A DNA stretch of 64,000 nt from a virus (Duplodnaviria > Heunggongvirae > Uroviricota > Caudoviricetes). The number at the start of each line of letters is the position of its first letter. Within the stretch, counting starts at the first letter, position 1. A program made the translations under genes and the position numbers. The notes beneath the pieces were generated by a model. The model was not told where the DNA came from. It worked only from the letters and a program-made list of their open reading frames with translations, and did not search any database. Shown here in pieces: positions 7,859 to 61,028 of the stretch. The stretch covers positions 1 to 64,000 of IMG/VR virus record IMGVR_UViG_3300032312_001770; one strand, 5' to 3'.

Positions 7859-7957
7859 AATTTAATTTTTCTTTTTATATAATAAAATTGATAATTTGTT
7901 TTTTAATAAAATTAGAAACATAGTTTTTAATATATACTTCAAACTATAAAACTTAAT

Positions 7958-9706: not shown

Positions 9707-9718
9707 TTTAATATATAC
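9707..9718 (+). promoter_or_regulatory. TTTAATATATAC promoter-like element 3 nt upstream of the ATG (one of at least 9 copies)
   Basis: Recurs at 7926, 9707, 19038, 36550, 53548 (+) and 29218, 59296, 61014 (-). Confidence 0.45.
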
Positions 9719-9721: not shown

Positions 9722-11359
9722 ATGTCAAACATGAAATATCTAATGTTATTTGAAGCTTTTGAAGCTAATGCTTTGTCAAAAATGATGGCATTTTTGACAA
9801 AAAAGACTGATAGTAATTCTAAAGAAAGATTCCGTGATAAACTAAAAACATTAATTACTAGATTAGATATTCCTATTGATAAAATTAAAGATAATGATAT
9901 TAAATATCTTAATAGAGCTCAAGCTCTTAAATTAAGGAGTGAAAGGGAATCTGATTCTATATTTTGTTTGAAGTTTTGGTTTTCAATAGATGAAGGTTAT
10001 TTAGGTTTTACTGGTACAGGTAATTTAACAATGGACTTTAATGAATATATTAGTGGAACTAGAAAAAGAAGTTCATCAGATAAAAATTCACCATTTACCA
10101 CAAGAGAATTAAATCATATTAAAAATGATTTAGATATTAATATTAAAACAGGATCTTTAGAACCAGTTAAAAACTATGAAAATTTACAACATGGTCAATT
10201 AGTCATGGGTATATTTTCAGATGATGAAGATTTAGATAGATTAGGAATAGCTAAAATTTGGAGAGATGAAAACAATTTATTTGCTATTCAAAATGTTACT
10301 TCTGGTGGAGAGCCTGGGTCTCAGATTGATGGTGTATCTTGGAGAGAATGGGGATATAGATATTCTTGGTCACTAGACAGTGTTTACTCACCCGGATCAG
10401 ACCATTGTAAGTTACATATTTATACACCATCTGATAAACCTATTCATGTAGTAGGTAATAAAAAAGAAGTTGAAGAAGTAGAAGTTAAGAGTCTATTTGA
10501 CTTTAATTTACCAGTAGATAGATATTATAGTTTAACAGAATGGGGTGATACTTCTTGGTCCATAGATAGTTATAAATCTGTTGAAAAATCAGACTTTGCA
10601 ATTGTCTTAATGATAGATGATGTTGTTAAATCAGTTGGAACTAAAGTCAGTAATGTCAGAAAATCTAGGGAAGAATCAAAAGAAGGCGCTACAAGTTTGA
10701 TGAGTGACCATCAAATTAAAGAAGCTAATATTAAAAGATATTTAATGGGATTGGTTTCTAAAATGGGTATTGCATTAGATACATCAAATCTTCAAAATCT
10801 ACAAAAGATGGTTATAAAATCTACTTGTGATGAATTTGCTTTTATTTCTATTTATAAAGAAAGACCAGATTTTGATACTTTAAATCAAATATCAAAAGAC
10901 ATTTATAACATGATGGATGTTAAATCGGAATCTGATAAAAAATATTATTTAGAAAGAGCAATATCATACTATCAAAGTTTAAATAGTATTTCTAATGATT
11001 ATAAGAAAAATTATGTTGAATCTTTAAAAGTTATTAAAAATTTTGATAATGAGCAAGTTAAAGAATTCTTTGATATAGCAATAAAAATGGGCAATAAAAT
11101 AAAAAAGTATTTACTATCTCAAAATATTCAAAGTATTGAAGATTTAAGAATGATTATTATTAAATTAAGAACTATTAAAACTATTTCAAGAGAAAACGAG
11201 TTTAGCTTTAGTGGTTTTATTAAAAGTATTTTAGATGAATTCCACTATAAAAGTGAAGTAGAATGGCTTTGCGCAAATGGCTATGGTGATAGAGATATAT
11301 CTAAAGAACTTACTAGAATTAAACACTTAGAAAGATATGTTGATTCTTTATTGAGATAA
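9722..11359 (+). CDS. hypothetical protein (N-terminal MKYLMLFEAFEA motif)
   Basis: 545 aa; promoter-like TTTAATATATAC 3 nt upstream of the ATG. Confidence 0.5.
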   Translation: MSNMKYLMLFEAFEANALSKMMAFLTKKTDSNSKERFRDKLKTLITRLDIPIDKIKDNDIKYLNRAQALKLRSERESDSIFCLKFWFSIDEGYLGFTGTGNLTMDFNEYISGTRKRSSSDKNSPFTTRELNHIKNDLDINIKTGSLEPVKNYENLQHGQLVMGIFSDDEDLDRLGIAKIWRDENNLFAIQNVTSGGEPGSQIDGVSWREWGYRYSWSLDSVYSPGSDHCKLHIYTPSDKPIHVVGNKKEVEEVEVKSLFDFNLPVDRYYSLTEWGDTSWSIDSYKSVEKSDFAIVLMIDDVVKSVGTKVSNVRKSREESKEGATSLMSDHQIKEANIKRYLMGLVSKMGIALDTSNLQNLQKMVIKSTCDEFAFISIYKERPDFDTLNQISKDIYNMMDVKSESDKKYYLERAISYYQSLNSISNDYKKNYVESLKVIKNFDNEQVKEFFDIAIKMGNKIKKYLLSQNIQSIEDLRMIIIKLRTIKTISRENEFSFSGFIKSILDEFHYKSEVEWLCANGYGDRDISKELTRIKHLERYVDSLLR

Positions 11360-18996: not shown

Positions 18997-19077
18997 ATAT
19001 AAGGAATTAATTTATTAAAAACAAATATTAAAGAAATGAGTAGAATTTAATATATAAGAAAAATCAATAGATTAAAA

Positions 19078-28721: not shown

Positions 28722-29204
28722 TCATGATTTAACTTCAATTACATATTGACCGGGATAAGCTCTGAAATCTGGTTTAACCATTACCGTAATAACAGTTAAT
28801 CTAAACTCATTATCACCTGGTACTAATTGACAAACAACATTTAAGTTATTTGTTTTATTTTTAATTAAAAATCTATTAGGATCACCGGCTTTGACTCCTT
28901 TGGTTGGATAATTATCTTCCAATTGATAGATATTGAATTTATCTTGCATGAGAGCAATAGTCAATTCTTCAATTGCTAATTCAATTGTATCAATAATATC
29001 TTCGTCTTTAATTTGATTTTCTAAAGCACCGTGTCTGAATTGTCTATCACCAGCATGATTTACTTTCTCAACATCAATTCTGATTTCAACCGGCTCTTTT
29101 AAGTAAGCAATTTCCTTAGGAGGTCTACTAGCCGCAATTCTTCTATCAATATAAGGATTGTTAAAAGCTTCAAATGTTTTTAGATTTTTCATTAATATAC
29201 CCAA
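28722..29204 (-). CDS. hypothetical protein (MKNLKTFEAFNN N-terminus)
   Basis: 160 aa; TTAATATATAC element upstream on the minus strand (29218-29229). Confidence 0.45.
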   Translation of the reverse strand: MGILMKNLKTFEAFNNPYIDRRIAASRPPKEIAYLKEPVEIRIDVEKVNHAGDRQFRHGALENQIKDEDIIDTIELAIEELTIALMQDKFNIYQLEDNYPTKGVKAGDPNRFLIKNKTNNLNVVCQLVPGDNEFRLTVITVMVKPDFRAYPGQYVIEVKS

Positions 29205-29231
29205 TTTTTTGTATTGGTATATATTAATTTT

Positions 29232-36549: not shown

Positions 36550-36693
36550 TTAATATATACTTTACAAAAAATTTCTAATATTTTATGCCTAATAAATTAC
36601 AATTTTATAACGACAGTGATATCGGTTACGATATTGAATGGCACACAGATGAGTTAATGGATGAAGTTGAAATAGAAGAACAAATAGAACAAG

Positions 36694-37656
36694 ATGAAGA
36701 AGAACTTAAAAAAGTATAACGATTTTATTAATGAGTCTTTAGTTGCTAAGCCAAAATTAACTAAGCCAGAATTGGATACTATTATAAGTAAAATTATTTT
36801 AAAAGTACCTGGAAACTGGAAAGAAAAGATATCTGATTTAAGAGATGAATTTGAAGAATCAGTAGTCAATATGGCTGATTTTTTTCCTGGTTGGTTTTCT
36901 GATATGTGTAAAAGAAAAGATGCTAATCCTGAAGGTGATTACCAAGAAATGCAAAAACTACTTGATAAGAAAGGTTGGAATTTTGAATCAATTAAAAATC
37001 TATTCAGTGAAGAAGTTAATAAATTAGTTGATAAAGATTTTACTGGCTGGTTTAATAGTTATGGTCAAATAGGAAGTAAAAATGGTCATTGTGACGTTTA
37101 TCTTTATTTTACTGCTAAAAATTTAGGATTAAATACAGATATTGTTTCTTTAGGTGGTGATGGTTGGGCCAATTATAACGAAGGTGATGAGATGTATATA
37201 AGATATAGATATGGTTATCATCAAACTAAATATGGTCAATTAATGCTAGACCAAATAGGTTATACAGTAGAACAATTCAGAGAAGAAGCCTTAGTTTATT
37301 TACAACAAGATATTGAAGATAATTGGAATAATATGATTTCATCAAGTGTTATGCGTAATGGTGTAATTAATAAAGTTCCTGTTAGAAGATCTGACTTAAA
37401 TGATAATACGATAAAAAATTTAACTTCTTTTTTAAAATCTTCAATTCAAATAGAAGAATATACTTTAGTTGAAGATGATAGAATGATTATATACTCAAAT
37501 GAGATTGCTAATGATATTAATAAGGCTTTTCCAGATACAACAACATCAGAAGAAATATCATCTGGTATAGTTAAGTATTTAGAATGGGCTGGAACTGATA
37601 TTGAAGTTGTTGATGGTGATGTTATCATCTGGGGTAAATTCAAAGTTGACTTCTAA
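36694..37656 (+). CDS. hypothetical protein with a T4 internal-protein-like N-terminus (MKKNLKKYNDFINES)
   Basis: 320 aa; TTAATATATAC element at 36550-36560. Confidence 0.5.
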   Translation: MKKNLKKYNDFINESLVAKPKLTKPELDTIISKIILKVPGNWKEKISDLRDEFEESVVNMADFFPGWFSDMCKRKDANPEGDYQEMQKLLDKKGWNFESIKNLFSEEVNKLVDKDFTGWFNSYGQIGSKNGHCDVYLYFTAKNLGLNTDIVSLGGDGWANYNEGDEMYIRYRYGYHQTKYGQLMLDQIGYTVEQFREEALVYLQQDIEDNWNNMISSSVMRNGVINKVPVRRSDLNDNTIKNLTSFLKSSIQIEEYTLVEDDRMIIYSNEIANDINKAFPDTTTSEEISSGIVKYLEWAGTDIEVVDGDVIIWGKFKVDF

Positions 37657-39838: not shown

Positions 39839-40314
39839 TTATTATATTTATTTTTGTCTGTTTTTTTAATTATTTTAGGTGTGTTTTCATCATGAATTAC
39901 TAAACCAGTTACTCCCTCACTTACTAACTTATCAAAATATCTACCTGGTTGAACTAAATCATCATCAAACCAGTGACCTATTGGGGTGTTTCTAATCTCA
40001 ACATTGACCTCTGATATTACTATTAATGGAACCTCAGGTAGAAATTTATCTAATAAACCTCTACAAAAAGAAATTGACTCTTCAAGATTTGTATCTAAGA
40101 GTACCTGAACTGATAACCCTCTATGATGAGCACTTGATATTTCAACACTTGTTGGAAACTTTATAGTTCTTAGAATCTCAACACATTTTATCCAATTAGG
40201 ATTCATATTTAATGTCCCTATTGGAAACTCTCGTCTACAAATAAACATGTTCATTATGACTTTCTTCTCAATTTTACCTTCGTTTACAAAAGTACCCCAA
40301 TTCTTTATATTCAT
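39835..40314 (-). CDS. hypothetical protein
   Basis: 159 aa. Confidence 0.4.
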   Translation of the reverse strand: MNIKNWGTFVNEGKIEKKVIMNMFICRREFPIGTLNMNPNWIKCVEILRTIKFPTSVEISSAHHRGLSVQVLLDTNLEESISFCRGLLDKFLPEVPLIVISEVNVEIRNTPIGHWFDDDLVQPGRYFDKLVSEGVTGLVIHDENTPKIIKKTDKNKYNN

Positions 40315-42778: not shown

Positions 42779-42865
42779 ACTATTTTACAAAGTTAATTAA
42801 ATAAAGTTTAATAACAAAGAAAGTCTTAATAAATAATATATACATAAAATCTCTTTGTTAAATAG

Positions 42866-45800: not shown

Positions 45801-48424
45801 TTAAAAGCTTAGTTGTAACTGATTCAATATTCTCAGATAACGGAAATATATTATCTAATGCAACATATGAAAACTCTTTCTTCTTAAATGATGGATCAGA
45901 TATATGGAATAGTGGTATTATACAAAACTCTATATGGGTTAATGGTACATTTAGTAACGGTGTTATTAGAGATTCAAGATGGATTAACGGTAAATTTTTA
46001 AATGGTTGGTTCTATAATTCAAGAACATTTAATGGTAATGCAAATGTTTCAAATCCTTATTACTATTCAGAAAATATAAACTCTTATTATAAAAATGGTG
46101 GATTGCCTAATAATAGAAATTCTTGGCAGAATGGTACTTTTGTTGATGGTGAGTTTTACAAGAGTGATTGGGAGTTTGGTACATTTAGTAATGGTAGATT
46201 CTACTATTCTAATTTCTATAACGGTTATATTAACAATGGTGTTCTAGGAAATAATCAAGTATCAACATTAGATACCAGAATATACAACGGAACGGTAAGT
46301 TATGCTACTGTTGATAATGCTACATTATATGCAGTTGATACAAGTTATCCTAAAAATGTTAGTCAGAACATATCTTGGTTAAATGGTAATTTTAATAATG
46401 GTGTATTTGGTTCTGATATAACACAAGGCATTACTCACTCGGCTATTTGGTACAATGGTTCATTCTTTGGTGGTCAATTTATAAGTATGGCTAAATGGAA
46501 AAATGGTACTTTTAATGGTGGTAAGTTTTTATCAGCGTATGGTTGGTCACAAAGTAATTCAACATCTCAATCAGATTATGGTTGGGAAAATGGTGTATTT
46601 AATGGTGGTGAATTTGGTAATGCTAATGGTTTAACTAACTCAACTTGGTATAAAGGCGAGTTTGATGGTGGTATATTTAGAGGAAGAGTTTGGAATGATG
46701 GTGTTTTCACATATGGTGAATTACAAGGCAGTGGTGTAAGTAGTCCAGTATCTGGATTGATTTGTGCAAATGCTAATGCCTTTGTTGATACATTTACCTA
46801 TTCATATTGGGGTCTTTGGAGAAATGGTTTAGTAACCAATACAAAAGACAGACTTATTAAAGATAGAAAGTTTTTTACAAAACAACTTAGATCTGTAAAC
46901 TTAGAAAGATTTAATGCACCACCTAAAACAGCAAAAATTAAAAATGCTTTATGGTTATCAGGTACATTTAGTCACACAAATGGAGAAATGAATAATTCAG
47001 TTTGGTTAGATGGTGCTTTTGAAAAAGGTAATTTTGTTAGTAGTTCATTTAACCCTTATGTCGAAAGAAGTCAACTTAATATATCTCCTACTTTATATAG
47101 TTCAGAATTATTATATAATGGTGGATTTAATCAGGGAACTACGGTATCTAGTGTAGGATGGGCTACTTCATCAGGAATTGGCGTAACCGGACCCTTAGCA
47201 AGTATAAAGTTAAAAATACCATATCTACCGACAGATGCTTTTTTTGGTGAAAATTATTTTGATGCTGGTTTTTGGTTTAATATAACTACATCTGGATTTG
47301 GTAATTTAAGTTTTACTTTTTCTTCAAATACACCAAGTGGACCTGGATTTTTAGATGCAATTTTTCTAGCTATACCAGTGATAGAATCAAGTTCTATAGG
47401 AACCTATTATAATTTAAGTTCTGGTAATGATGGAACTTATGATTATATTTTATTTGAAGCAGCTAATAGTGGATCGGCTTATAATATAACTTCTTTTAAC
47501 TCAAGAACTACAAGCGCTGATCCAGGCGAAGCAAATGGATTTTTTGATAATAATACAAGTGCTATTCCTTCTGCTGTATCGTCTGCTTTTAGTGCTGGAT
47601 TTGGATCTCCAACATTTAGTTTAGCACATTATATTGGTGGATCGGCTTCACCAGGATTATACTTATATAATACAGTTACTAGATTGAATCCAGGTAAATA
47701 TGAATTTGATTTAAATGTACTAACACATTCATCTAATATAAATCTAAAAGTAAATATAGGAACATATTCATATTTTAGTTCATCCGCTCCATTAACTTTA
47801 GGTTCAAATATATTTGAAGCCAAAACAACTACAGGTGGTAGTGTATCAATATATGTTGATACTAATGGATTAGGCGGATCGATATCTATTGATTCTCTTT
47901 CTATAAAAGAAAAGATGAGAACATTTAATTTAAATGATGATACTTGTTATTGGGAAAATGGTACTTTGAATAATAGTGATTTCTATATTTCTCAATGGAA
48001 AAACGGTAAGTTTATTATAGGAACAGCAACCGGTATGATTTGGAAAAATGGTATTTCTAACTATATGAATGCGTTTAATGTTTTCTGGGAAAATGGTACT
48101 TGGAGAAATGGTAACTGGTATGGTTCCTCGTTTGTGTATAATGGTTCAATTACAGAAGACTATGTTTTGCAGATATTAGATAGAGGTGAAGATTGGAGTG
48201 GAACATCATCAGCACATATTTGGAATATATTTTTACAACCTGGTGATTTTGAGGCATCTATATCATCTGTAATAGCCGCTACACCATCTTATGGAGCAAC
48301 CGATGCTGTTTTAGATATAACAGGCTGGGTATCAAGTGGATATGATCCATATTCTATACAAACATTGCCTGTTTTTGAATATGTGAGTATTGAAGATGTG
48401 AGTCCGCCTATATTATCAGGGTAA
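42866..48424 (+). CDS. giant (1852 aa) fibre/structural protein with NG-rich beta-helix-like repeats
   Basis: Repeats of WxNGxFxNGxF / SxWxNGxF between roughly aa 1000-1300; Asn/Ser/Thr-rich. Confidence 0.6.
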   Translation: MATYSVDINVRKKIFNIPIDLIGVSYTEPRSNVPTLTNSSISAIANVISTKPQLITRAQLQNLGNNINLVGYDPLIGLVTNSNKTFSPKLLNWVEPYDLNASGTYKTTFYTEVNTGLKVGDKVFILNGNYDSDLLIQNNKYKKGRDGYKVLYVDNCKITLDIDYTGVLPYKSSIDDDFIKVYYIRNQSEFLHANRSVTTKSGKFENKFSYYNNNIIYVDAVYSTSEFWGRNTGVAGPGFYVRSSSATWTSITSPFTTTGSYSYSTQSNANKVKIMNGDFTYNGKEYKEGFIYKWFVGPTQSEWITDVTYFPPYISKSNFRDGVFNGELNSGIFGQYYKKINWFGNGSVWNTGTLINTNWQKGTLDSLYTASQSYFSSFDNNGLPYQKANSPNNAGRGYNFVLNSNINQSTVVNGSIYSTIFGTHSNATYSIVENELLEYSTTYLNTIKSAFFNKCEFNNSFIENSELKNTISNNSKFERVKSINSYFNKSVLKDSSYNSDNIIKIFAYDELTASESSSLPGLTYSNINDVVQKVYKFYIDKNGYERLRTGDAFYLKGIKINNNSKNVINFFDKKFKIGSWTEYIESNFGTVANGKRGYQYSAFLSSPLDNNLKFTSATFSETSGLKYQTIAYSNNVNSNYYSIDLWVSNYDINNNNTAGENLNFNSDMSVYDANSLQGPNSLGNIIDVTSAYIVDADFDSGLIENSDWNSGSHIESNNDNNITIPSLSGGTYSLSINSSNYIVATTSYNSNYSESNLISIGDIVFLDSVDFQPSPKIITTTSSLFPDTQVGFTTFFTFTQSYDNILITGSSSTTSFDGTFDLFYESGTYPTSTLIDNLLGKYMDYNTTYNFSIPLSGVSASNSIRFYISDGGLDNLNFQIINLNDSSRIPDTYKVMSNTNGVYQLKEIGTVSNIISLSASNGSFYTKNAQNRYGHIKKLKIDKTNIKSGFLRRSYITGSLIQNIDLNYLDKDLTNLENIKSLVVTDSIFSDNGNILSNATYENSFFLNDGSDIWNSGIIQNSIWVNGTFSNGVIRDSRWINGKFLNGWFYNSRTFNGNANVSNPYYYSENINSYYKNGGLPNNRNSWQNGTFVDGEFYKSDWEFGTFSNGRFYYSNFYNGYINNGVLGNNQVSTLDTRIYNGTVSYATVDNATLYAVDTSYPKNVSQNISWLNGNFNNGVFGSDITQGITHSAIWYNGSFFGGQFISMAKWKNGTFNGGKFLSAYGWSQSNSTSQSDYGWENGVFNGGEFGNANGLTNSTWYKGEFDGGIFRGRVWNDGVFTYGELQGSGVSSPVSGLICANANAFVDTFTYSYWGLWRNGLVTNTKDRLIKDRKFFTKQLRSVNLERFNAPPKTAKIKNALWLSGTFSHTNGEMNNSVWLDGAFEKGNFVSSSFNPYVERSQLNISPTLYSSELLYNGGFNQGTTVSSVGWATSSGIGVTGPLASIKLKIPYLPTDAFFGENYFDAGFWFNITTSGFGNLSFTFSSNTPSGPGFLDAIFLAIPVIESSSIGTYYNLSSGNDGTYDYILFEAANSGSAYNITSFNSRTTSADPGEANGFFDNNTSAIPSAVSSAFSAGFGSPTFSLAHYIGGSASPGLYLYNTVTRLNPGKYEFDLNVLTHSSNINLKVNIGTYSYFSSSAPLTLGSNIFEAKTTTGGSVSIYVDTNGLGGSISIDSLSIKEKMRTFNLNDDTCYWENGTLNNSDFYISQWKNGKFIIGTATGMIWKNGISNYMNAFNVFWENGTWRNGNWYGSSFVYNGSITEDYVLQILDRGEDWSGTSSAHIWNIFLQPGDFEASISSVIAATPSYGATDAVLDITGWVSSGYDPYSIQTLPVFEYVSIEDVSPPILSG

Positions 48425-48477
48425 CTAATCAGAATGAAAACAGATAATAAAAATATATAATAAAAATAACTTAAAAA

Positions 48478-51400
48478 ATGACATCATTCATCAGAAGATC
48501 AGGTAGATTAAGTTTACCAGTATCAACCGCACCTACATTTGCACTGGATCCATCCCTTTTTACCAATGCGTTACTTGATTCTGGTTATAGCTATTGGGTA
48601 TATGACGCATTACCGACTCCTGGTAGATTACATGTTGATTCAACTGCTATTGATGGAAGAGCACCAGGTGGAACTGGCGGTGTTAGAGGTATATTTATTT
48701 TAAAACATAACAATCCAAGCGCATATACTTATTCTCCTGATAAAACATATCAAATTATAACTAATACAGTTAATGTTTATGCGACAGCCGCTTCTTTTTC
48801 AGTTAGTTTTAATTGGGGTGACCAATTAAACTATTCAAGAGGAATGACAGCCGCTTATGGCGCTCCCGGCACTGCCACTCAAAGTTTTGTTCATTACTCA
48901 ACACCTCCTGAAAGATTGACAACAAGAAATGATGTTATTTATAAAGCCAATGGTACTTTTAGTAATGCCGGAACTACTCAGAATAATAGAGGGATAGTAA
49001 GCTATACGGTCAATGAACTAGATTTTAGGATTTTAGGATTCTCTTATTATAAAATGCAATACTTTGAATTATCAAGAGAAGAGTTAAAAAATTCACTTGG
49101 TTGGTATTACGATAAACCAAGTGATATATATTTTTGGTATGATAGAGTATCATCAACATCATCAAATGATTCTTTAGGTTATTTTCCAGTTGGTGGTAAC
49201 AATAATAGTAAGGTGGCTAATAAAGGTTATAGACTTAATAACGCAATATATAAATTTGTACCATATACTTATTTTAACTTGAATTTTAACTATCAAAATA
49301 CAACATCTTCACCTTTAAGAGTTTATTTATCACCATCACCACCATCAACATTGATACCTTCTGCTGCAAACTATAATGCCGGTATTTACACACCACCAAA
49401 TGGTAGTACTTTAATAGCCACAATAACTCAGAGTTCTTATGGTACATTCTCTTCTACAGATAGTTCTGTGCCAGTTGGATTTTATGGAATAAGAGGTAAT
49501 CAATATTTAATATTTGTTGGTCCGTTTATGGGCGCGACTTCTTCTTCTAGTGCAACAGCATCTGTATATTTACAAAATATAATAGTTGATGGTGCCTATC
49601 ATCCGGGTAATAACAGACAATATGTAATGACATCTGGACTTACTTACTCAACAACGGTTACTGGTTTAACAGGAGCAACTTACGCAACAATTGTTGGCAA
49701 TGGAAATACTATTAACGCAACATCATCCTTATCAATTGGTAGAATATTTTCAAAAATTGGAAACGGTAGTTTCAAAGCAGGTATATGGGAAAATGGAGTT
49801 TGGAATAGTGGTTGGAGAGTTGATGATGGAATGTTTGAGTTTTATAATGTTACTAGCTTTTTTAGTTATAACAGAAATAAAAGATGGAGAGTTCAAATAT
49901 CGGGGCCTTCTGAATCTGTTTCTAATTTCAATATTGGTGATAATGTCGCCATAGGCAATATTATTGCAATTGATATAAATGAGGATAGAAAATTATTAAA
50001 AGGATATTATACTATTATTAATAAAACATATAATAGTATAGTTGTTGAGTTTGATAATAATTTTCCTATAAGAAGAATTGAAAAAGATTCGGATAATCAT
50101 AGAATCTTTATAACTAAAAATGTTTGGTTGTCTGGTGCATTCTTAAACGGTTATTTCAAAGGAGTTTGGAACTATGGATTATTCAAAGGATATCCTTTAA
50201 TTACTGAGATGTATGATTCTCATTGGATTGATGGTATATTTGATGGTGGACATTTTGTATCAGATCCTTATATACTTCCTGATTTTATAGATACCTTTTT
50301 TAACTCTGGTGGTGTTGGTTTACAATTTGCAACAAATAGCACACCTCACGGTTTAGTGGTTGGTGATTTAATTACTGTTGATAAAAATAACAAATCATTA
50401 AATCCTCAATACGATGGCGATCACAATGTTTTAGAAGTTATTAATAATTACCAAGTAGTAATAGATGTTGATTATGGATCTGATTCAACTTTAGAAGGTG
50501 GTAAGGTTTATATAGATAAGAACAAAGGACTTTTACAAAGAGTTGATTTTAAATCAAATAACGTATCAAAAATAACATCTGCTAATTCCACAGATTCAGG
50601 ATCGGTTTTTGTTTATAATTCTTGGATGGATGTAAATTATGATCCTTCTTATGCCACAAATATTGGAAAACCTCAATCCACATTAAATCCATTATCGAGA
50701 AAATCTTTCTCTGAAAATAATTTATATGGTTATACAACAAATGATGTTTTAGAAAGTAATTCAACATTTAGAGATAGTTTCTCAACAACAATTAGAAGAT
50801 ATAAATTAGGAACAAAGTATAAAATATTTGCTGATTTTATTGGAGATGCTGGTAAATTTGAAGACGAGTTTGGTGGAACATTTAGTGATGCGGAGAGTAC
50901 ATTTTTAAAAGAAGGTTGGACTTTCTCTAGAACAAATATATCATCATTAACATTTTCTAGAACAACTCCTGCTGATAATGAACCATTAATAACTGGTGAG
51001 GAACTAATAGTACAAGCTAGAAATAGTGGAGGTATATTGGATATTACACCATTTAGTGATGATTATATAGCAAACAGAACTTATGAAGAGGTTCAAAAAT
51101 TAAGATATACAAAAGTTGAATTTGATGTAATTACTTTCTCAGGTCCCATAACAACATATGGTGATAATTATAATTATTTATTTACATTTAATAATTTTTA
51201 CAGACAGCCACCTATACACTTCAATAATTTAAACTTAATCATAAGACAGGTTTACACATCTGGTATTAGCTACCGAACAATAGATTATGCTAAATTTTTA
51301 CCGGTATATGAAAATGTGAATCACTTGAATACTAGAAATAAAAAGAAAGTAGAGTATTTCTATAATAAAAGAAATTTAAGTATGAATTTTGCAGGTTTGA

Positions 51401-52104
51401 ATTATCCTCTAAATGGCGATACTTCAGCATCTGAGTATGTAATAGATAACTTACACTTTTATGAGATTGATATGATACCATTTTTTCAATATTTTACAGA
51501 TAATAATATCAATAAAAGTGTTCAAGTTCCATTTCAAGGAATATCACCATTTATTGATTATTCAAATGTTGGATTTAACTTTGTTGATAATCTTACAATT
51601 GGACTAGATAGTATTAGAACAGAGAACTCTAATGATATAGTCAGTGGAGTTGGTGCGGGTATTGGTAACATAGGTAGAGCTACTTCGGGATCTATCGGAG
51701 GAGGAAGTATTTTTACTTCACCCGCAATCGAAGCACCATTATCATCATTAGTAATTGAACCGGGTGGATTTGCTCCACTATTACCATATACAATATTTGG
51801 CGACACATCAACAACTTCTGCTACTATAACAGGTACTATAACAGTCAATACAGCACCAGTTACTATTAATTTAACTTCATCAGCGAGCGGAGGCTCTATT
51901 TTTAGTATCAGATTCACTACGGCTACTTTAGTTATAGGTGGTACTGGAACTATTACGGGTGTTGGTAGAACAATGGTACATAACTCTAATAGTGTGTCAT
52001 CATCAATATCTACTACAAGAACGTTAACACAGAATACAACATACCCTTATACTTTAAGTATAACAAGAACCGGAACAGGATTAGCATCGTTTTCTTTATC
52101 TTAA
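48478..52104 (+). CDS. large (1208 aa) structural protein sharing the same WxNGxF-type repeats
   Basis: FKAGIWENGVWNSGWRV, VWLSGAFLNGYFKGVWNYGLFKGY. Confidence 0.55.
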   Translation: MTSFIRRSGRLSLPVSTAPTFALDPSLFTNALLDSGYSYWVYDALPTPGRLHVDSTAIDGRAPGGTGGVRGIFILKHNNPSAYTYSPDKTYQIITNTVNVYATAASFSVSFNWGDQLNYSRGMTAAYGAPGTATQSFVHYSTPPERLTTRNDVIYKANGTFSNAGTTQNNRGIVSYTVNELDFRILGFSYYKMQYFELSREELKNSLGWYYDKPSDIYFWYDRVSSTSSNDSLGYFPVGGNNNSKVANKGYRLNNAIYKFVPYTYFNLNFNYQNTTSSPLRVYLSPSPPSTLIPSAANYNAGIYTPPNGSTLIATITQSSYGTFSSTDSSVPVGFYGIRGNQYLIFVGPFMGATSSSSATASVYLQNIIVDGAYHPGNNRQYVMTSGLTYSTTVTGLTGATYATIVGNGNTINATSSLSIGRIFSKIGNGSFKAGIWENGVWNSGWRVDDGMFEFYNVTSFFSYNRNKRWRVQISGPSESVSNFNIGDNVAIGNIIAIDINEDRKLLKGYYTIINKTYNSIVVEFDNNFPIRRIEKDSDNHRIFITKNVWLSGAFLNGYFKGVWNYGLFKGYPLITEMYDSHWIDGIFDGGHFVSDPYILPDFIDTFFNSGGVGLQFATNSTPHGLVVGDLITVDKNNKSLNPQYDGDHNVLEVINNYQVVIDVDYGSDSTLEGGKVYIDKNKGLLQRVDFKSNNVSKITSANSTDSGSVFVYNSWMDVNYDPSYATNIGKPQSTLNPLSRKSFSENNLYGYTTNDVLESNSTFRDSFSTTIRRYKLGTKYKIFADFIGDAGKFEDEFGGTFSDAESTFLKEGWTFSRTNISSLTFSRTTPADNEPLITGEELIVQARNSGGILDITPFSDDYIANRTYEEVQKLRYTKVEFDVITFSGPITTYGDNYNYLFTFNNFYRQPPIHFNNLNLIIRQVYTSGISYRTIDYAKFLPVYENVNHLNTRNKKKVEYFYNKRNLSMNFAGLNYPLNGDTSASEYVIDNLHFYEIDMIPFFQYFTDNNINKSVQVPFQGISPFIDYSNVGFNFVDNLTIGLDSIRTENSNDIVSGVGAGIGNIGRATSGSIGGGSIFTSPAIEAPLSSLVIEPGGFAPLLPYTIFGDTSTTSATITGTITVNTAPVTINLTSSASGGSIFSIRFTTATLVIGGTGTITGVGRTMVHNSNSVSSSISTTRTLTQNTTYPYTLSITRTGTGLASFSLS

Positions 52105-52135
52105 AAAATCCACTTATTTAATAAGTGGATTTTTA
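52103..52135. terminator. bidirectional terminator palindrome AAAAATCCACTTA-loop-TAAGTGGATTTTT between convergent genes
   Basis: Direct reading of the sequence. Confidence 0.65.
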
Positions 52136-52858
52136 GGTTATAATTAAATTTTCTTTTTTTAATAAAAGATAACCAACCATTCCGGCTACATCTTTAGAGC
52201 AATTTCCCATAGATTCAATTTTAGTTTCATCACCGGTTAATTTAATACCTGATAGTTTTTGTTTACCTAAAATTCGTTTCTCGCCATTACATTTTTTACA
52301 AGGTGTTAAACCTATTTTACCTTTACCGTTACAAAAGTTACAAGAATCACCTTTGTAGTCTTTTCCAGAACCTTCACAGAAGTCACATCCATCATCAGCA
52401 TCAAATGTTCTTAGAATATTACCATCATTGTCTTTAATAATAATTTTAGCAGAAAGGTCTTTACCCGTACCATCACAAGTTTTACACTTAACCCATCTTT
52501 CATATTCCAAAGTACCATCAAAGTCATCATCTATAGTAAGATAAATATCTAAAACTTCATTCTTTTTAAATTTCTCAAAATTAGATTTTTCTTTATTATA
52601 ATCAAAATCTATGTTAATATCAAATAATTCAAAATATTCATTATAGTTTTTACCAAACTTACTTTTAACATCATAGTCTTTTCTTTTCTCACCGCAAAGA
52701 ATATCGTAAGCTTCAGTCATTTCACCAAAAACTATAGGATCGCCATTCTTATCAGGATGATGCGTAAATGATAATTTATAATAAGCTTTTTTAATAGTCT
52801 TTTCATCAGAGTTATTATCAACTCCAAGAATTGAGTAATAGTTTTTATTCAAATTCAT
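52133..52858 (-). CDS. DnaJ-like protein: N-terminal J domain plus CxxCxGxG zinc-finger repeats
   Basis: YYSILGVDNNSDEKTIKKAYYKLSFTHHPDKNGD (HPD motif); CKTCDGTGKD, CDFCEGSGKD, CNFCNGKGK, CKKCNGEK. Confidence 0.65.
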   Translation of the reverse strand: MNLNKNYYSILGVDNNSDEKTIKKAYYKLSFTHHPDKNGDPIVFGEMTEAYDILCGEKRKDYDVKSKFGKNYNEYFELFDINIDFDYNKEKSNFEKFKKNEVLDIYLTIDDDFDGTLEYERWVKCKTCDGTGKDLSAKIIIKDNDGNILRTFDADDGCDFCEGSGKDYKGDSCNFCNGKGKIGLTPCKKCNGEKRILGKQKLSGIKLTGDETKIESMGNCSKDVAGMVGYLLLKKENLIIT

Positions 52859-53060: not shown

Positions 53061-53370
53061 CTAATATTTGATTAATTTTTTTCTCTCTAAGTAGTGATTT
53101 GTTTGTTTTTTCAAACTCACCTCTTTTATCTTTATATCCACAATCTTTACAAACTGATATACTGTCTTGAGTTGGTTTGGAACCATCTACCGGTATAAAG
53201 AACTTCCAAGATATGTTTTTACTTTTACAATTAGGACAACCCGATAAATCCTCTAAAGGTTTTATAAAGCCGACCTTTTGTAGTTTTCCTAAATCATATG
53301 TTTTATTACTTTGATTTGGAAATAAACTAAGTAACTTATTAATCATTATTTCTGTATTTCTCTTGAACAT
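53047..53370 (-). CDS. zinc-ribbon protein (CPNC...CKDC)
   Basis: Two CxxC pairs. Confidence 0.4.
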   Translation of the reverse strand: MFKRNTEIMINKLLSLFPNQSNKTYDLGKLQKVGFIKPLEDLSGCPNCKSKNISWKFFIPVDGSKPTQDSISVCKDCGYKDKRGEFEKTNKSLLREKKINQILDEFQ

Positions 53371-53527
53371 ACTTAGCTTTATTAATCTCAGCTCTTCTTT
53401 TTACAGATCTTTTAGTGAACTCTTTTCTATCTCTTAATTCTCTAAGAGTTTTAGTTTTGTCCCATTTTCTTTTAAGGGTTTTAAGAGCTTTCTCAATTGT
53501 TGTTCCTTCTACTTTTACTAATAGCAT
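53339..53527 (-). CDS. rpsU: ribosomal protein bS21 homolog
   Basis: 62 aa; MLLVKVEGTTIEKALKTLKRKWDKTKTLRELRDRKEFTKRSVKRRAEINKAKYV parallels the bacterial S21 pattern (MPVIKVRENE..ALRRFKR.CEK.G.L.E.RRR.FYEKPT..RKR). Confidence 0.7.
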   Translation of the reverse strand: MLLVKVEGTTIEKALKTLKRKWDKTKTLRELRDRKEFTKRSVKRRAEINKAKYVQEKYRNND

Positions 53528-53591
53528 ACTAAAATCTTTTTTTGTATATTATATATTTAATATATAGTTATATCAATAAAATATAACATAG

Positions 53592-55118
53592 TTGAAAATG
53601 ATTAAAAAATATTCAGACTTCTTAAAAGAAAACTTAGAATTCATCATAGAATCTAATGTTGTTTTCTCTGATAACTTCAGAAAAGCAATGACCAGAATTG
53701 AACATCCAATGGCTAAAGCTATTTTAGGTGTTGAAAACAATGATATCACAGTTCAGGCTAACTACCTTGATATTGAATTTTCAAAAAACGATACAATTAC
53801 TTTTACTCCTGATAGAAAAGCTCAAGAGATTTTAGGTGATACTAAAGAAGTAGTTAGATTCACTGGTTCAGGTGGTGGTTGGTTAAAACACAAAGATTCA
53901 AATGCTAAATTATTTACTCGTCTAGGTTATACATTTGAAGAAGGTTCTAATCCTTACCAGCCTAATTCTAGAGATTTGGGTGAAATAGTTGCTAAAGTAA
54001 CATCTGAAACAAGTGGTAAAGTTTATGCTTGGGTTAAATTTAAAGACCAATCAGGAAATGAAGTTGGTGAAGGTGTTTATAATAATGAAAAACTAAGAGT
54101 TGTTGATGAAAGAATTAAAAAGATTTGGTCATCTAATAGACAGGAGATTAAAGTAGGTAGAGCAATGAGAGCACTTTTGAAAGCGGCTGGTGCTGAATTT
54201 GCTGATAAAGACTTTGAACAATTTGTTAATTTATATAAAGCAACTATTGATAAGATGAATGATAAGTTTTCTTATATTGAAGTTGTTAGAGGTTCAGATA
54301 TTGCTCACTGGTATCACAATGAAAATTACTTTCAAAGAAGTGGCACTTTAGGTTCATCTTGTATGGCTAGTGCTCCTGAGAGTTGGTTAGAAGTTTACAC
54401 TGCTAATCCAGAAGTTGGTTTAGTTATTTACAAATCAATTGATGATACTGAAAAAATTATTGGTAGAGCCTTACTTTGGAAATTAAAAGATGGTAAAGAA
54501 TACTTGGATAGAATCTATACAGTAAATGATTCTGATGTTCAATTATTTAGAGATTATGCTAAAGAAAATGGTTGGTACTATAAAGAAAATAACAATAGCT
54601 CAGATAGTAGTAATGCTATAGCACCAGATGGAAGTAGAGTTAACTTAGACTTAATTGTTAATTTAACTGATGCTAGTATGGATAATTTTCCTTACTTAGA
54701 TACACTTAAATATTTTAATCCAAGAAGAAAAACAATTTCAAACTTTGATACTGGTGGTTGTTACTTCTTAGAAGATACAGGCGGTGATTATGTCAGACCT
54801 TGTGATACTTGTGGTGGATCAGGTAGAACAGAATGTCCCGATTGTGATGGAAACGGTGATTATCAATGCGGAAATTGTGATGGTGATGGAGAAGTTGACT
54901 GTAATGAGTGTTATTCTGGTAAAGTAGAGTGTGATAACTGTAGTGGCTCAGGTGAAGTAGATGATGAGCCTTGCCGCGATTGTGATGGCGAAGGTAAAGT
55001 TAACTGTTCAGATTGTGGTGGAAGTGGTAAAGAACAATGCAGTACTTGTGATGGTGACGAAAGAGTAAAATGTGATAACTGTAGTGGTAGAGGACAAGTT
55101 GACTGTTATGACTGCTAA
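53592..55118 (+). CDS. hypothetical protein with an MKMIKKYSDFLKEN N-terminus and a C-terminal array of about 8 CxxCxGxG/CxxCDGDG zinc-knuckle repeats
   Basis: Residues ~405-508: CDTCGGSGRTECPDCDGNGDYQCGNCDGDGEVDCNEC... Confidence 0.5.
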   Translation: MKMIKKYSDFLKENLEFIIESNVVFSDNFRKAMTRIEHPMAKAILGVENNDITVQANYLDIEFSKNDTITFTPDRKAQEILGDTKEVVRFTGSGGGWLKHKDSNAKLFTRLGYTFEEGSNPYQPNSRDLGEIVAKVTSETSGKVYAWVKFKDQSGNEVGEGVYNNEKLRVVDERIKKIWSSNRQEIKVGRAMRALLKAAGAEFADKDFEQFVNLYKATIDKMNDKFSYIEVVRGSDIAHWYHNENYFQRSGTLGSSCMASAPESWLEVYTANPEVGLVIYKSIDDTEKIIGRALLWKLKDGKEYLDRIYTVNDSDVQLFRDYAKENGWYYKENNNSSDSSNAIAPDGSRVNLDLIVNLTDASMDNFPYLDTLKYFNPRRKTISNFDTGGCYFLEDTGGDYVRPCDTCGGSGRTECPDCDGNGDYQCGNCDGDGEVDCNECYSGKVECDNCSGSGEVDDEPCRDCDGEGKVNCSDCGGSGKEQCSTCDGDERVKCDNCSGRGQVDCYDC

Positions 55119-58244: not shown

Positions 58245-58274
58245 TAGAGTATATATTACTCTAACATGTTTTCA

Positions 58275-58520
58275 TCACCAGATTTGTGGAAAGTTTGCGG
58301 GTCCTCCTTTTGGAGTAGAAGTTATAATAATATTAGAAACATCTATATCAAATATTTTACCTATTTTTATTCTTCTTGAATATCTTTTAAAAAAAATTTG
58401 TCTAACAATAGATATATCTACTTCTTTAAGAAAAACTCCTGGACTTTTATATACTGCCATTTCTCTTCTTCTTTTTACTTCTTCTTGTTTTCTTGTGAGA
58501 TTTAGATGACTCATCACCAT
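58275..58520 (-). CDS. hypothetical protein (overlapping ORF; real start may be downstream)
   Basis: 81-aa ORF. Confidence 0.25.
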   Translation of the reverse strand: MVMSHLNLTRKQEEVKRRREMAVYKSPGVFLKEVDISIVRQIFFKRYSRRIKIGKIFDIDVSNIIITSTPKGGPANFPQIW

Positions 58521-58932
58521 ATTTATAATCTAAATAGAATAAAGTACCTGATGGACCAGACATTGGAGTTACTCCTTTTTTCATCAACTCTTTATATTCT
58601 TCATCATCTTCTAACTTCTTTTCACTAAATTCACCGCCTTCAATAATAGCTTCAATTTTACCATCACGATTTTCAGATTGTACTTTCTTTTTAACCTCAT
58701 CAATTTCTTCTTTTGTAGCAAATATTAAATCATTTGATATTGTTCTAGCGGCTACTTTCATAGCTATTGGTAATAATGTTGAAAAATCTTCTGATTTAGA
58801 TTCTTCTAATATTTGATTTGATTGATTTTCAGCTAACTGTGATAAATTATCTAATTGAGATCCAGTCATACCCATAGACCCTAAGATGGAAGTCCACTTT
58901 TTCGTTATATCTTCTTTATTTGTTTGTTTCAT
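58447..58932 (-). CDS. hypothetical protein with a Lys/Arg-rich C-terminus
   Basis: 161 aa; overlaps ORF 58275..58520 by 74 nt. Confidence 0.4.
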   Translation of the reverse strand: MKQTNKEDITKKWTSILGSMGMTGSQLDNLSQLAENQSNQILEESKSEDFSTLLPIAMKVAARTISNDLIFATKEEIDEVKKKVQSENRDGKIEAIIEGGEFSEKKLEDDEEYKELMKKGVTPMSGPSGTLFYLDYKYGDESSKSHKKTRRSKKKKRNGSI

Positions 58933-58977: not shown

Positions 58978-59292
58978 TTAGTAGTTAAAGTTTAAGAACT
59001 CATACTCTTTTAGTATCAATTGTTTAACTTTCTCAAAGTTTTCATCAGATAAAGAATAATACTTTTTCTGAAACCAACTAATCATATGATTAATAATAAC
59101 ATCCTCTGCCTCACCGTTTCCAGTTCTTGAATAATATTCGGGATCTTCTTCATCTGGTTTCCATTGATTAATTTCATCATTTAACATATCTTGTATTTCA
59201 GATTGGTCTGGAAATCTTCCTTTAATTTTAGCAATAGCAAACTCAGGATCTTGTTGTTCTTGATTTTCGTTATATTTTTTTAAGTATTTCAT
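58978..59292 (-). CDS. hypothetical protein (MKYLKKYNENQ N-terminus)
   Basis: 104 aa; GTATATATTAA element immediately upstream. Confidence 0.45.
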   Translation of the reverse strand: MKYLKKYNENQEQQDPEFAIAKIKGRFPDQSEIQDMLNDEINQWKPDEEDPEYYSRTGNGEAEDVIINHMISWFQKKYYSLSDENFEKVKQLILKEYEFLNFNY

Positions 59293-59307
59293 AATGTATA
59301 TATTAAT

Positions 59308-60051
59308 TTATATTCCAAACATATCTTTCATCTGAGAAAGAAAATTATTAACAAAATTTTTATCTTTTTCAGAACCATCTTCAAGTATATTTTTCACCCA
59401 TTCTTTGTTCTCAATATATTGATAAGCTTGTAGTTTATCCGAGTAATCAAAATCATCCATTTTCTTTCCAATATATGATTCAATATCCTTTTCAAATTCT
59501 TCTTCAGAAATCCACATGTCATCTGTTTCTTTTGACAATCTATCGTCTAGACCAGCAATAGCATCATCAATATCACTTATATCAATATCAGAAATACTAA
59601 GATTAGATTCATCAGAAGTATAAATCCAAGTCTCATCCATCTTATTTAAGATATGGTTAGCTTCTTTTCCTAATCTCATAATATCTTCTTCATCTCTTTC
59701 CTCATTATCTAATAAACTATTAAAACAAGATATCAAATCATCTAAATGACTAAAAATAGATTCTTCATAAGAAGAAAGTAAATCTTTACCATAAACTTCT
59801 TTTTCAAATAAATTAATTACAGATAAGTATTCTTCAGTAATTTTATATTCACCTTTAACAGCACTATCAATTAAATCATTCAATGAAGCTTTAAATCTTT
59901 CATAAGATGATAGTTTATTATCATCATAACACTTTTTCTCATGAAGTTGAACTATTTTAATAATAGCTTGTTTCATTTTACCAATGTTTGCTAAAAAATC
60001 AAAATCAAAATCATTTGACTCTAAAAATAATTTATAGTTTTTAATTTTCAT
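59308..60051 (-). CDS. hypothetical acidic protein (MKIKNYKLFLESNDF N-terminus)
   Basis: 247 aa. Confidence 0.45.
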   Translation of the reverse strand: MKIKNYKLFLESNDFDFDFLANIGKMKQAIIKIVQLHEKKCYDDNKLSSYERFKASLNDLIDSAVKGEYKITEEYLSVINLFEKEVYGKDLLSSYEESIFSHLDDLISCFNSLLDNEERDEEDIMRLGKEANHILNKMDETWIYTSDESNLSISDIDISDIDDAIAGLDDRLSKETDDMWISEEEFEKDIESYIGKKMDDFDYSDKLQAYQYIENKEWVKNILEDGSEKDKNFVNNFLSQMKDMFGI

Positions 60052-60053: not shown

Positions 60054-61010
60054 TTATTTTAATTTTATATGTATGTAAACATAATATGATGTTGGTTTAA
60101 CACTAATTAAAACTCTACTGCTCCATTTCTTAGTAAGCAACCAAGTTGTGAAGTTATTTTTAATATTCATAAATTCACCTTCATCAAATTTACCATTATC
60201 CCATTTACCTAAACCTTTATATCCAAAAGATATTATCTTATCTTGAATTTTCACAACATCTTTTGATTCGTGATAACCAGGATTAAATCCTTTCATATCT
60301 GATTTAATCTTACCTAATGTCATTACATCAGCTAAACTTAGATTAACTAACTCTTTCTTTAATGAGTGAGCTGATTTAGATTCAATTTGACAAATCCATT
60401 TAATAACAGATTGATTCAACTTAAATTGACCAATTGGTGTTAGTACATCATAATGTAAACCATATTCAAAACTACCATCACATTTGATACCAAAGTATAA
60501 ATCAACTTCATTCTTTTGATAATCAACATGGTCTAAGTATCTACTTAAAGACTTGAATCTTGAAAATACTTGTTTTACATGTTCTGATTGTAGATTAGGG
60601 TAGTAATAGTATAATAAAAAGTCATCTGGAGATTTAGACCAGTTTGGTCCTAATTCTTTTTGACCTAAACTGGTTAAAGCTTTTAGGAAAGAAGTAAATA
60701 TACCTTTTCCAGCAACTGTAATTTCTGATTCAGTTAATTCTTCTAAATCAGTTGAAACTAAGAACTCAGGTTCTTTTTCTTCAATACCATTTTGTAAGTA
60801 ATTATCAATTTGATATTTAATTTCATTTTTAGTATTATCATCTAAGATATTAATAGCATTTGATAAGTCAATAGAAGCGTCAGAATCTTTTGTATAACGA
60901 GCTACTATGTTTCTAACATACTCATCATCTATAAGAGATTCAATCCACTCTCCAAGTGAATTAAAACCATTGAGATTTTCTTTTATAAATTCTAAATATC
61001 TTTTAATCAT
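60054..61010 (-). CDS. hypothetical protein (MIKRYLEFIKENLNGF N-terminus)
   Basis: 318 aa; GTATATATTAAATT upstream at 61014-61027. Confidence 0.45.
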   Translation of the reverse strand: MIKRYLEFIKENLNGFNSLGEWIESLIDDEYVRNIVARYTKDSDASIDLSNAINILDDNTKNEIKYQIDNYLQNGIEEKEPEFLVSTDLEELTESEITVAGKGIFTSFLKALTSLGQKELGPNWSKSPDDFLLYYYYPNLQSEHVKQVFSRFKSLSRYLDHVDYQKNEVDLYFGIKCDGSFEYGLHYDVLTPIGQFKLNQSVIKWICQIESKSAHSLKKELVNLSLADVMTLGKIKSDMKGFNPGYHESKDVVKIQDKIISFGYKGLGKWDNGKFDEGEFMNIKNNFTTWLLTKKWSSRVLISVKPTSYYVYIHIKLK

Positions 61011-61028
61011 AATGTATATATTAAATTG

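Follow-up and report, generated by a model that had tools for sequence, protein, structure and literature searches.

A short N-terminal peptide resembling the T4 capsid-targeting sequence recurs on unrelated proteins of an uncultured tailed phage and its megaphage relatives

Tagged proteins of the window

The stretch of DNA analyzed here (the window) comprises 64,000 nt, positions 1 to 64,000, of the IMG/VR virus record IMGVR_UViG_3300032312_001770 (Caudoviricetes). In reverse complement, it corresponds to about 46,216-110,215 of the 110,473-bp metagenomic scaffold KRAE22-1 scaffold_29 (ENA ERZ28593923). The G+C content of the window is about 30%, the regions upstream of its genes contain no Shine-Dalgarno-like sequences, and it carries ten tRNA genes and one gene for ribosomal protein bS21. 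About one-ninth of its genes (8 of 71 open reading frames, ORFs) encode proteins that begin with a variant of the same short peptide, referred to below as the tag. The tag lies within residues 1-15 of all carriers, and in seven of the eight it contains an aromatic residue followed three residues on by Phe, which is missing from the product of 58978-59292. The coordinates of the tags and of the features discussed with them are collected in Table 1.

Table 1. Tags, promoter-like sites and associated genes of the window (aa, amino acids; scores are those of the matrix described in the text)
Feature	Position	Strand	Remarks
Tag MSNMKYLMLFEAFEA, borderline	9722..9766	+	N-terminus of 545-aa protein 9722-11359; score 7.3 (threshold 8.3; next non-member 2.4)
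Tag MKNLKTFEAFNN	29157..29192	-	N-terminus of 156-aa protein 28722-29192; score 13.9
Tag MKKNLKKYNDFINE	36694..36735	+	N-terminus of 320-aa protein 36694-37656; score 22.1
Tag MNIKNWGTFVNEG, borderline	40276..40314	-	N-terminus of 159-aa protein 39835-40314; matches [YFW]..F[LIVM].E; score 6.8
Tag MIKKYSDFLKE	53598..53630	+	N-terminus of 506-aa protein 53598-55118; class 2, T4-like, ending F-L-K-E; matches Y.[DE]F[LI].E; score 18.0
Tag MKYLKKYNEN, weak	59263..59292	-	N-terminus of 104-aa protein 58978-59292; score 8.4, just over threshold
Tag MKIKNYKLFLES	60016..60051	-	N-terminus of 247-aa protein 59308-60051; score 18.0; gene 2 nt downstream of gene 60054-61010
Tag MIKRYLEFIKE	60978..61010	-	N-terminus of 318-aa protein 60054-61010; score 18.1
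Promoter-like TAATATATAC	9709..9718	+	3 nt ahead of ATG 9722
Promoter-like TAATATATAC	29217..29226	-	24 nt ahead of ATG 29192
Promoter-like TAATATATAC	36551..36560	+	25 nt ahead of 44-aa ORF 36586-36720, which overlaps the start of 36694
Promoter-like TAATATATAG	53558..53567	+	30 nt ahead of ATG 53598
Promoter-like TAATATATAC	59296..59305	-	3 nt ahead of ATG 59292
Promoter-like TAATATATAC	61014..61023	-	3 nt ahead of ATG 61010; heads the tag-gene cluster 61010-58978
Further promoter-like sites, TAATATATA[C/G/A]	1028-1037, 7928-7937, 19048-19057, 42834-42843	+	Upstream of genes, correct orientation
Further promoter-like sites, TAATATATA[C/G/A]	40897-40906, 58249-58258	-	Upstream of genes, correct orientation
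M16 peptidase, 371 aa	37704..38819	+	Pfam Peptidase_M16 2e-9, M16_C 1.4e-13; intact HxxEH (HLMEH at residue 34); 47 nt downstream of carrier gene 36694-37656
Truncated gp23-type paralogue, 161 aa	58447..58932	-	Resembles N-terminal ~120 residues of capsid protein; directly downstream of three-gene tag cluster

The first-pass annotation had quoted the motif for at least seven proteins of the window and a similar start for an eighth; all eight N-termini read as quoted, with three starts corrected. The most likely start of the ORF at 53592 is the ATG at 53598 (MIKKYSDFLKEN), from which a public gene call also predicts a protein of 506 aa, and that of the ORF 28722-29204 is the ATG at 29192 (MKNLKTFEAFNN). 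Seven of the eight proteins were picked out by a 13-column scoring matrix, iterated and trained on the genome of the related megaphage LR756502 alone (the window being unseen), and six of them exceed its threshold of 8.3. The eighth, 30514-30807 (TTG start, LINFKEFFYFKN), receives no support from the matrix and was removed from the list, and the product of 39835-40314 (MNIKNWGTFVNEG), absent from that list, is an additional member. Six window carriers thus lie above the threshold, and two (9722 and 39835) are borderline and clearly apart from the remainder.

The tag is confined to N-termini. The pattern Y.[DE]F[LI].E, which was derived from T4 and not from the window, matches three N-termini (36694, 53598 and 60054-61010) and no internal position in 18,368 residues, while the looser pattern [YFW]..F[LIVM].E matches five N-termini, again with zero internal sites. 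When residues 2-21 of every window protein were shuffled, the regular expression was hit 0.10 times on average (maximum 2), compared with the five hits observed. With the matrix, the threshold is exceeded in only 2 of 17,176 internal windows. The carriers are not paralogues and align with one another over their first 13-14 residues only, and Pfam and PHROGs scans of the window carriers identified no meaningful family.

An ending of the type [LIV]-x-E is found in four of the carriers: 36694 (FINE), 53598 (FLKE) and 60054 (FIKE) have [LI]-x-E, the kind of site at which removal of the peptide had been envisaged, and 39835 has V-x-E (FVNE). The ending is missing from the other four. The 53598 protein has a second site, I-I-E, at residues 16-18, and the tag is kept in both its ortholog (LR_321131) and its paralog (LR_251650) in LR756502. 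The tag of the 58978 protein is a MKYLKKYNE variant without Phe at +3, which is common in LR756502, where the ortholog (LR_315393) begins MKYLRRYNED. The 9722 protein begins MSNMKYLMLFEAFEA (MSNMKYLM...), and its ortholog LR_368380 begins MKNKHILLFEAFTSK.

A further carrier, of class 2, lies on the same contig about 9.8-10.2 kb past window position 64000 (L001 848-1237). It is a 129-aa protein beginning MIKKYLQFIKEADETTEAQ, with orthologs in LR756502 (309113) and LR745206.

The tag in related megaphages

Protein searches among deposited phage genomes identified only two relatives of the window, LR756502 (642 kb) and LR745206 (635 kb). Both are uncultured megaphages, and the amino acid sequence identity is 64% in the case of the 60054 protein and 40% in that of a 1,208-aa protein. 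When 9 kb of window sequence was compared with GenBank phages by megablast, the sole match was 214 bp long. In a preprint both genomes are grouped with the largest known phages, and the N-terminal motif is not mentioned there.

All 642,428 bp of LR756502, with 938 called ORFs, were analyzed. The loose regular expression matches 26 N-termini (1.8 expected, p = 1.6e-21) and 24 internal sites in 186,338 residues, and the matrix is passed by 156 of the 938 N-termini vs. 44 of 163,826 internal windows. A recount made for the controls gave 159 ORFs, so that 156-159 proteins, about 17% of the ORFs, are tagged. In this complete genome, the phenomenon is on a far larger scale than the seven proteins first proposed. 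Shuffled N-termini passed in 3.5 cases on average, and pseudo-starts at internal Met residues in 9 of 2,985.

Two main forms of the tag were distinguished in LR756502: M-K-[HY]-[LI]-K-x-[YF]-x-x-F-E-S (class 1, e.g., MKHLKxYxxFES or MKHLKTYKIFES) and M-I-K-K-[YW]-x-x-F-[IVL]-x-E (class 2). Counted from the aromatic residue as position 0 (Y92/F51/W6), position +3 is Phe in 107 of the 156 tags. A [LI].E site within the first 20 residues is present in 51% of the tagged proteins vs. 22% of other N-termini. Near one genome end (10-45 kb; L003), LR756502 contains dense tandem arrays of small class-1 genes (MKHLK.Y..FES), often overlapping by 4 nt; these arrays are partly paralogous, with one blastp component of 19 members.

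Tags also occur in 50-kb samples of LR756501 (735 kb; 8 of 56 ORFs pass the matrix) and LR745206 (8 of 58). The equivalent samples of Lak-A2 (1 of 65) and of Tenacibaculum phage PTm1 (first 50 kb; 1 of 56) are at background level, and that of S-PM2 contains none (0 of 57). A DNA pattern for M-I-K-[KR..]-Y-x-x-F-I-x-E gave 107 matches in IMG/VR, 88 of them at ORF starts and mostly in AT-rich contigs, many longer than 100 kb; 203 of 1,083 neighboring ORFs were also tagged. With the codon order reversed there were 20 matches; none of these coincided with the start of an ORF, and not one of 185 neighboring ORFs was tagged.

The first-pass annotation had named a compositional artefact, with the motif equally frequent at internal positions, as the outcome that would speak against its proposal. 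The controls with internal positions, shuffled residues, internal Met starts and the reversed pattern rule out such an artefact, as do the samples of AT-rich T4, PTm1 and Lak genomes, which are without tags.

Modularity of the tag and selection on the peptide

With the tag trimmed, 167 carriers (60 to 797 aa) fall into 133 blastp components; in LR756502 the tag is appended to otherwise unrelated proteins of about 130 families. Pfam domains were found in only about a dozen of the 150 carriers scanned, and these are unrelated to one another: PPK2, Rnl1 RNA ligase, NUDIX, methyltransferases, SET, GNAT, HNH, LigT/Acb1-like, DHH and one PQ-loop membrane protein. The Rnl1 homologue of LR756502 is longer than T4 RnlA by about 22 residues at the N-terminus, and the tag is part of this extension.

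The synonymous codons of the tag broadly follow genome usage (Leu is encoded by TTA, CTA, CTT and TTG), and the residue classes are kept: the aliphatic position is L89/I59/V7, never Phe or Met, and the aromatic position is Tyr, Phe or Trp. On the grounds of this codon usage and of the lack of Phe and Met at the aliphatic position, selection acts at the level of the peptide. Some third positions are biased beyond genome usage (A in 84% of the codons preceding the aromatic one, and an excess of C in the His/Tyr codon), so that a minor constraint at the RNA level may exist. A purely nucleotide-level motif is ruled out by the codon evidence, despite these few biased positions.

Conservation of the peptide ends directly past its Glu in the two families aligned. 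For the 36694 protein, 120 homologues with identities as low as 55% were aligned; L5, K6, Y8, F11 and E14 are nearly invariant (entropy 0.07-0.15) and residues 19-60 are variable (entropy often about 1.5 or more). For the 60054 protein, likewise with 120 homologues, MIKRYL[ED]FIKE shows almost no variation, and within the first 45 columns variability is highest at the two residues past Glu11 (entropy 1.6 and 1.8). AlphaFold2 (AF2) models of the two proteins show the tag as a short N-terminal helix, poorly packed or of low confidence: helix 2-12 followed by a linker (13-23) in the 36694 protein (mean pLDDT, the model's per-residue confidence score, of 57 for the first ten residues), and helix 2-9 in the 60054 protein (pLDDT below 50 for residues 1-12). 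Signal peptides of the Sec, Tat and lipoprotein types have a hydrophobic core of about 7-15 uncharged residues behind a basic n-region; in the tags, charged and hydrophobic residues alternate (e.g., MIKRYLEFIKE), and no such hydrophobic stretch was found.

Comparison with the T4 capsid-targeting sequence and other systems

The motif had been likened to the capsid-targeting sequence (CTS) that T4 has on its internal proteins (IPs) I-III, and this resemblance proved to be quantitative. In the T4 CTS, residues 4 and 7 serve mainly targeting and residues 8 and 10 processing, and the prohead protease gp21 cleaves behind L/I-x-E (PMC9026906). The four conserved positions of the tag (the aromatic residue, Phe at +3, Ile/Leu/Val at +4 and Glu at +6) coincide with T4 CTS residues 4, 7, 8 and 10, and the best tags of the window read YSDFLKE, YNDFINE and YLEFIKE compared with YQEFIAE in T4. 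The megaphage-trained matrix was run on 150 kb of T4 (243 ORFs), where it ranked IPII first (11.3), IPIII second (10.9), gp61.1 (MKTFKEFIKED) third (10.6) and IPI fourth (9.4), with 2 of 38,185 internal windows above the threshold. The N-termini of the internal proteins, as read from AF158101, are MKTYQEFIAEARV (IPII), MKTYQEFIAEASV (IPIII) and MKTFKEFTST (IPI). The hypothetical gp61.1 (AF158101 18966-19130, 54 aa) scores like the known internal proteins and may be an unrecognised CTS bearer.

The T4 CTS (Mullaney and Black, 1996, as reviewed in PMC9026906 and PMC3012670) and the tag have in common (i) a length of about 10-14 residues and a position at the extreme N-terminus of otherwise unrelated proteins, (ii) the pattern M-(basic)-x-[Y/F]-x-[E/D]-F-[I/L]-x-E, and (iii) the genomic setting, as genomes of the megaphage clade encode a portal and a capsid protein of T4 type along with a gp21-type protease, and contain an A/T promoter motif like that of T4 late genes. 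They differ in that 3-4 proteins carry the CTS in T4, whereas about 150 carry the tag in the 642-kb relative and 8 of 71 ORFs in the window. Moreover, most megaphage tags have 2-3 additional residues (MKHLK.../MIKK...) ahead of the aromatic one, the cargoes are mostly acidic, reach about 800 aa and include enzymes, about half of the tags have no clear [LI]-x-E, and the megaphage tag is known from sequence alone. The searchable literature yielded no account of a CTS-like tag in megaphages and no proteomic data on these uncultured phages.

In the phiKZ-like giants (phiKZ, 201phi2-1 and SPN3US), many head and ejection proteins (19 processed in 201phi2-1) enter a large head and are trimmed behind Glu by a diverged gp21-type protease, and their propeptides are thought to act in a CTS-like manner (PMC9026906, PMC5694885). 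Most of these propeptides are long, in many cases over 100 residues; they share no short common consensus and are cut at S/A-x-E, whereas the megaphage tag is short and strongly conserved. In T4-type phages, the mobile regulatory cassettes known as PeSLs (PMC2839356) also are conserved promoter-proximal sequences repeated ahead of many unrelated small genes in plastic regions, but they are non-coding early promoter/stem-loop units. The megaphage element is a translated peptide under selection at the amino acid level, and the promoter-like motif linked with it is common to structural genes.

Head genes and candidate processing enzymes

The head module of LR756502 encodes a T4-type portal (Portal_T4, 1.3e-57) and capsid protein (Gp23, 3.7e-28). 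Between these genes lies that of a 699-aa protease/scaffold candidate, whose N-terminal domain (225272-226000) is matched by S-PM2 gp21 at 9.9e-16 (phmmer). A search of PDB sequences with this protease returned nothing; its identification relies on phmmer searches in which T4 and S-PM2 gp21 were the queries. Its domain aligns GELNHP with GEFDHP and VSSRG with VSSRA of T4 gp21, two motifs that we take to carry the catalytic His and Ser. Other T4-like products of LR756502 are gp17, gp18 and gp4, together with gp41, gp43, gp44, gp46/47, gp32 and UvsX, and there are two hits to gp55-like late sigma factors; no gp22-like scaffold was detected in this genome. From its relatedness to LR756502, the phage of the window is likewise expected to have T4-type head genes.

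The truncated gp23-type paralogue of the window (58447-58932) matches the LR756502 capsid protein with a blastp value of 6e-8, gives a weak Pfam Gp23 match and contains the motifs KKW..L..MG.TG ... LLP.AMK.AA.TI. Its ortholog occupies the same position in LR756502 (LR_315773_316270, 2.4e-26), and the protein may be prohead-associated.

An M16-like or an M28-like peptidase of the window had been put forward as the enzyme that processes the tag. To judge from the relatives, their gp21-type serine protease would be a better candidate than either. Nothing connects the M28 peptidase, a member of an aminopeptidase-type family, to the tag, and it was rejected in this role. The M16 peptidase is retained as an alternative candidate. 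The presequences processed by M16 enzymes of the mitochondrial processing peptidase (MPP) type form a basic amphipathic helix essentially without acidic residues; the tags do not have this character, with a conserved Glu or Asp at +2, +4 or +6. A putative peptidase common to these megaphages is mentioned in a preprint.

A promoter-like motif upstream of tag genes

In LR756502, 71 of 159 tag genes have the sequence TAATATA in the 60 nt upstream of them, vs. 119 of 779 other genes (p = 6e-15), and in 54 of these 71 it is located 5-9 nt ahead of the ATG. The genes of this phage for portal, protease, capsid, sheath, terminase and large fibre-like proteins are preceded by the same motif or a close variant of it, usually at 20-28 nt. 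In the window, the exact 10-mer TAATATATAC occurs 8 times (0.74 expected), 12 of the 14 TAATATATA sites are placed 4-31 nt upstream of a correctly oriented ORF, and 7 of the 8 carriers belong to units headed by the promoter-like motif. Two spacing classes were distinguished, in which the 9-mer ends 4-5 nt or 21-31 nt before the ATG; the shorter spacing suggests leaderless mRNAs. The T4 late promoter has the consensus TATAAATA, and the motif is probably a promoter of this type, likely serving as the late promoter of the clade. The tag itself is independent of promoter context: TATATA is lacking upstream of 70 of the 159 tag genes, and 67 of the 107 tag genes with an upstream neighbor on the same strand are separated from it by 10 nt or less, many being internal to operons.

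The promoter-like site at 36551-36560 is followed after 25 nt by a 44-aa acidic ORF at 36586-36720 (+; MPNKLQFYNDSDIGYDIEWHTDELMDEV...), which overlaps the start of 36694 in another frame. Several genes for fibre-like or large structural-looking proteins also lie behind the motif, among those at 61029-63077 (-), 63079-63780 (-), 1062-2018 (+), 7958-8842 (+) and 42866-52104 (+). One member of this set is a 682-aa Laminin_G_3 protein; others are repeat proteins that resemble one another, and ORFs without a Pfam match that are 1,852 and 1,208 aa long.

Interpretation of the tag

The tag is real, exclusively N-terminal, selected as a peptide, carried by unrelated proteins, equivalent in sequence to the T4 CTS and present in a lineage with T4-type heads. 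The explanation with the most support, to which we give an even chance, is that it is a modular N-terminal targeting peptide akin to the T4 CTS, which directs proteins into the prohead and is then removed by gp21-type cleavage. The peptide would form a short amphipathic helix with a basic start, its aliphatic residue, aromatic residue and Phe on one face, and many copies ending in [ILV]-x-Glu. Late in infection, tagged proteins would be made alongside the head proteins, the tag would bind the scaffolding core of the T4-type prohead so that the cargo becomes enclosed, the gp21-type prohead protease would cut behind the Glu and free the cargo inside the capsid, and the cargo would be delivered with the DNA at the next infection. 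Core binding, cleavage, packaging and injection are steps that we infer from the likeness to T4. A bolder form of this proposal is that, in the clade of phages larger than 630 kb to which the window's phage would belong, the tag loads on the order of a hundred proteins into the capsid, to be injected as a pre-made proteome for host takeover and anti-defence. The presumed cargo would be mostly ORFans, plus RNA ligase, PPK2, NUDIX, methyltransferases and a LigT/Acb1-like phosphoesterase; we regard this form as conceivable and incline against it.

Several observations weigh against prohead targeting: (i) about 17% of ORFs are tagged, far above any known set of packaged proteins; (ii) the head genes were located in the relatives and none within the window; (iii) [LIV]-x-E is absent from four of the eight window carriers (59308, 58978, 28722 and 9722), and about half of all tags have no clear [LI]-x-E, the commonest class (MKHLKxYxxFES / MKHLKKYNES) often lacking one; (iv) the carriers with Pfam matches are typical cytoplasmic enzymes and one PQ-loop membrane protein; (v) carriers tend to be acidic (median pI 5.46 vs. 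5.96 for other proteins), and T4 internal proteins are basic; and (vi) the T4-type capsid phages Lak-A2, PTm1 and S-PM2 are untagged in the 50-kb samples, because of which the tag is not a general property of T4-type heads. Its likeness to the T4 CTS could be convergent.

Three other explanations were considered, none of which accounts for the match to the functional residues of T4. The tag could be a modular helix addressed elsewhere than to the prohead, e.g., to a phage compartment or assembly, to a chaperone (the phage DnaJ) or to processing by the M16 peptidase, a family that includes presequence-processing enzymes. A modular, peptide-selected and detached N-terminal helix is what would be expected here too, and a very large number of cargoes, including cytoplasmic-type enzymes and a membrane protein, fits general intracellular sorting better than packaging. 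Also in its favor, the M16 peptidase, apparently active to judge from its intact motif, adjoins the carrier gene 36694, and genes for DnaJ and an SPFH/Band 7 protein are present in the window. Such a destination would make it a coincidence that four functional CTS residues are matched and that the matrix retrieves the T4 internal proteins; M16 presequences are basic and without acidic residues, unlike the tags, and to our knowledge no sorting system of this kind with such a motif has been described in phages. We consider it unlikely. Somewhat less credence still is given to the tag as mainly a feature of expression, i.e., a 5' coding sequence favored for translation of late mRNAs, many of them leaderless, in a host that makes no use of Shine-Dalgarno signals. 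It would have spread through the genome with the promoter as a mobile cassette similar to those of T4-type phages, and the peptide as such would do little. Mobile regulatory cassettes are documented in T4-type genomes (PMC2839356), TAATATA stands 5-9 nt before the ATG in 54 of 71 cases and TAATATATAC 3-4 nt before it in three window carriers, and third codon positions are partly biased, as noted above. Yet 70 of 159 tag genes have no TATATA upstream and 67 of 107 lie within 10 nt of a same-strand upstream neighbor; the residue classes are maintained through different codons (four for Leu; I/L/V and never F/M; Y/F/W); the tag does not vary among homologues with as little as 55% identity, unlike the 40 residues behind it; and the AT-rich Bacteroidota phage PTm1 and Lak-A2 have no tag.

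The carriers might finally represent one ancient gene family, with the N-terminal helix as the last recognisable part of a common fold. BLAST is insensitive to remote homology, and 19 small proteins in the tandem arrays at 13-42 kb of LR756502 do form one blastp component, but the 167 carriers make up 133 components of 60 to 797 aa and include unrelated enzyme families (PPK2, Rnl1, NUDIX, SET, HNH and GNAT), the tag lies in an extension that T4 RnlA lacks, and the two AF2 models show different folds, with the tag helix of the 60054 protein below a pLDDT of 50. We hold a common origin to be very improbable, and a single paralogous family was rejected in view of the 133 components, the unrelated enzyme domains and the RnlA extension.

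The genes of these uncultured megaphages are mostly ORFans. The tag matches the only experimentally defined capsid-targeting signal, that of T4. If prohead targeting is correct, a mark on about one-sixth of the genes would sort ORFans into a functional class by sequence alone, the injected proteome would be unusually large, and the tag could serve as a predictor for uncultured megaphages. If it is wrong, the tag would still be a new and very abundant clade-specific signal for sorting or expression.

Genes in the vicinity of carriers and promoter-like sites

The carrier 53598-55118 (+) has C-terminal CxxCxGxG zinc-finger repeats of the DnaJ type, and the neighboring phage DnaJ contains similar ones (blastp 3e-7). 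Between this carrier and the DnaJ gene (52133-52858 (-)) lies the gene for ribosomal protein bS21 (53339-53527 (-)). An SPFH/Band 7 protein is encoded in the window in addition to DnaJ. The array of ten tRNA genes (2472-4493 (-)) has two further copies of the promoter-like motif, at 3067-3075 and 4768-4776 (-), one of them inside the array and the other upstream of it. The array comprises four tRNA-Lys and two tRNA-Phe genes, and Lys and Phe are abundant in both the proteome and the tag.

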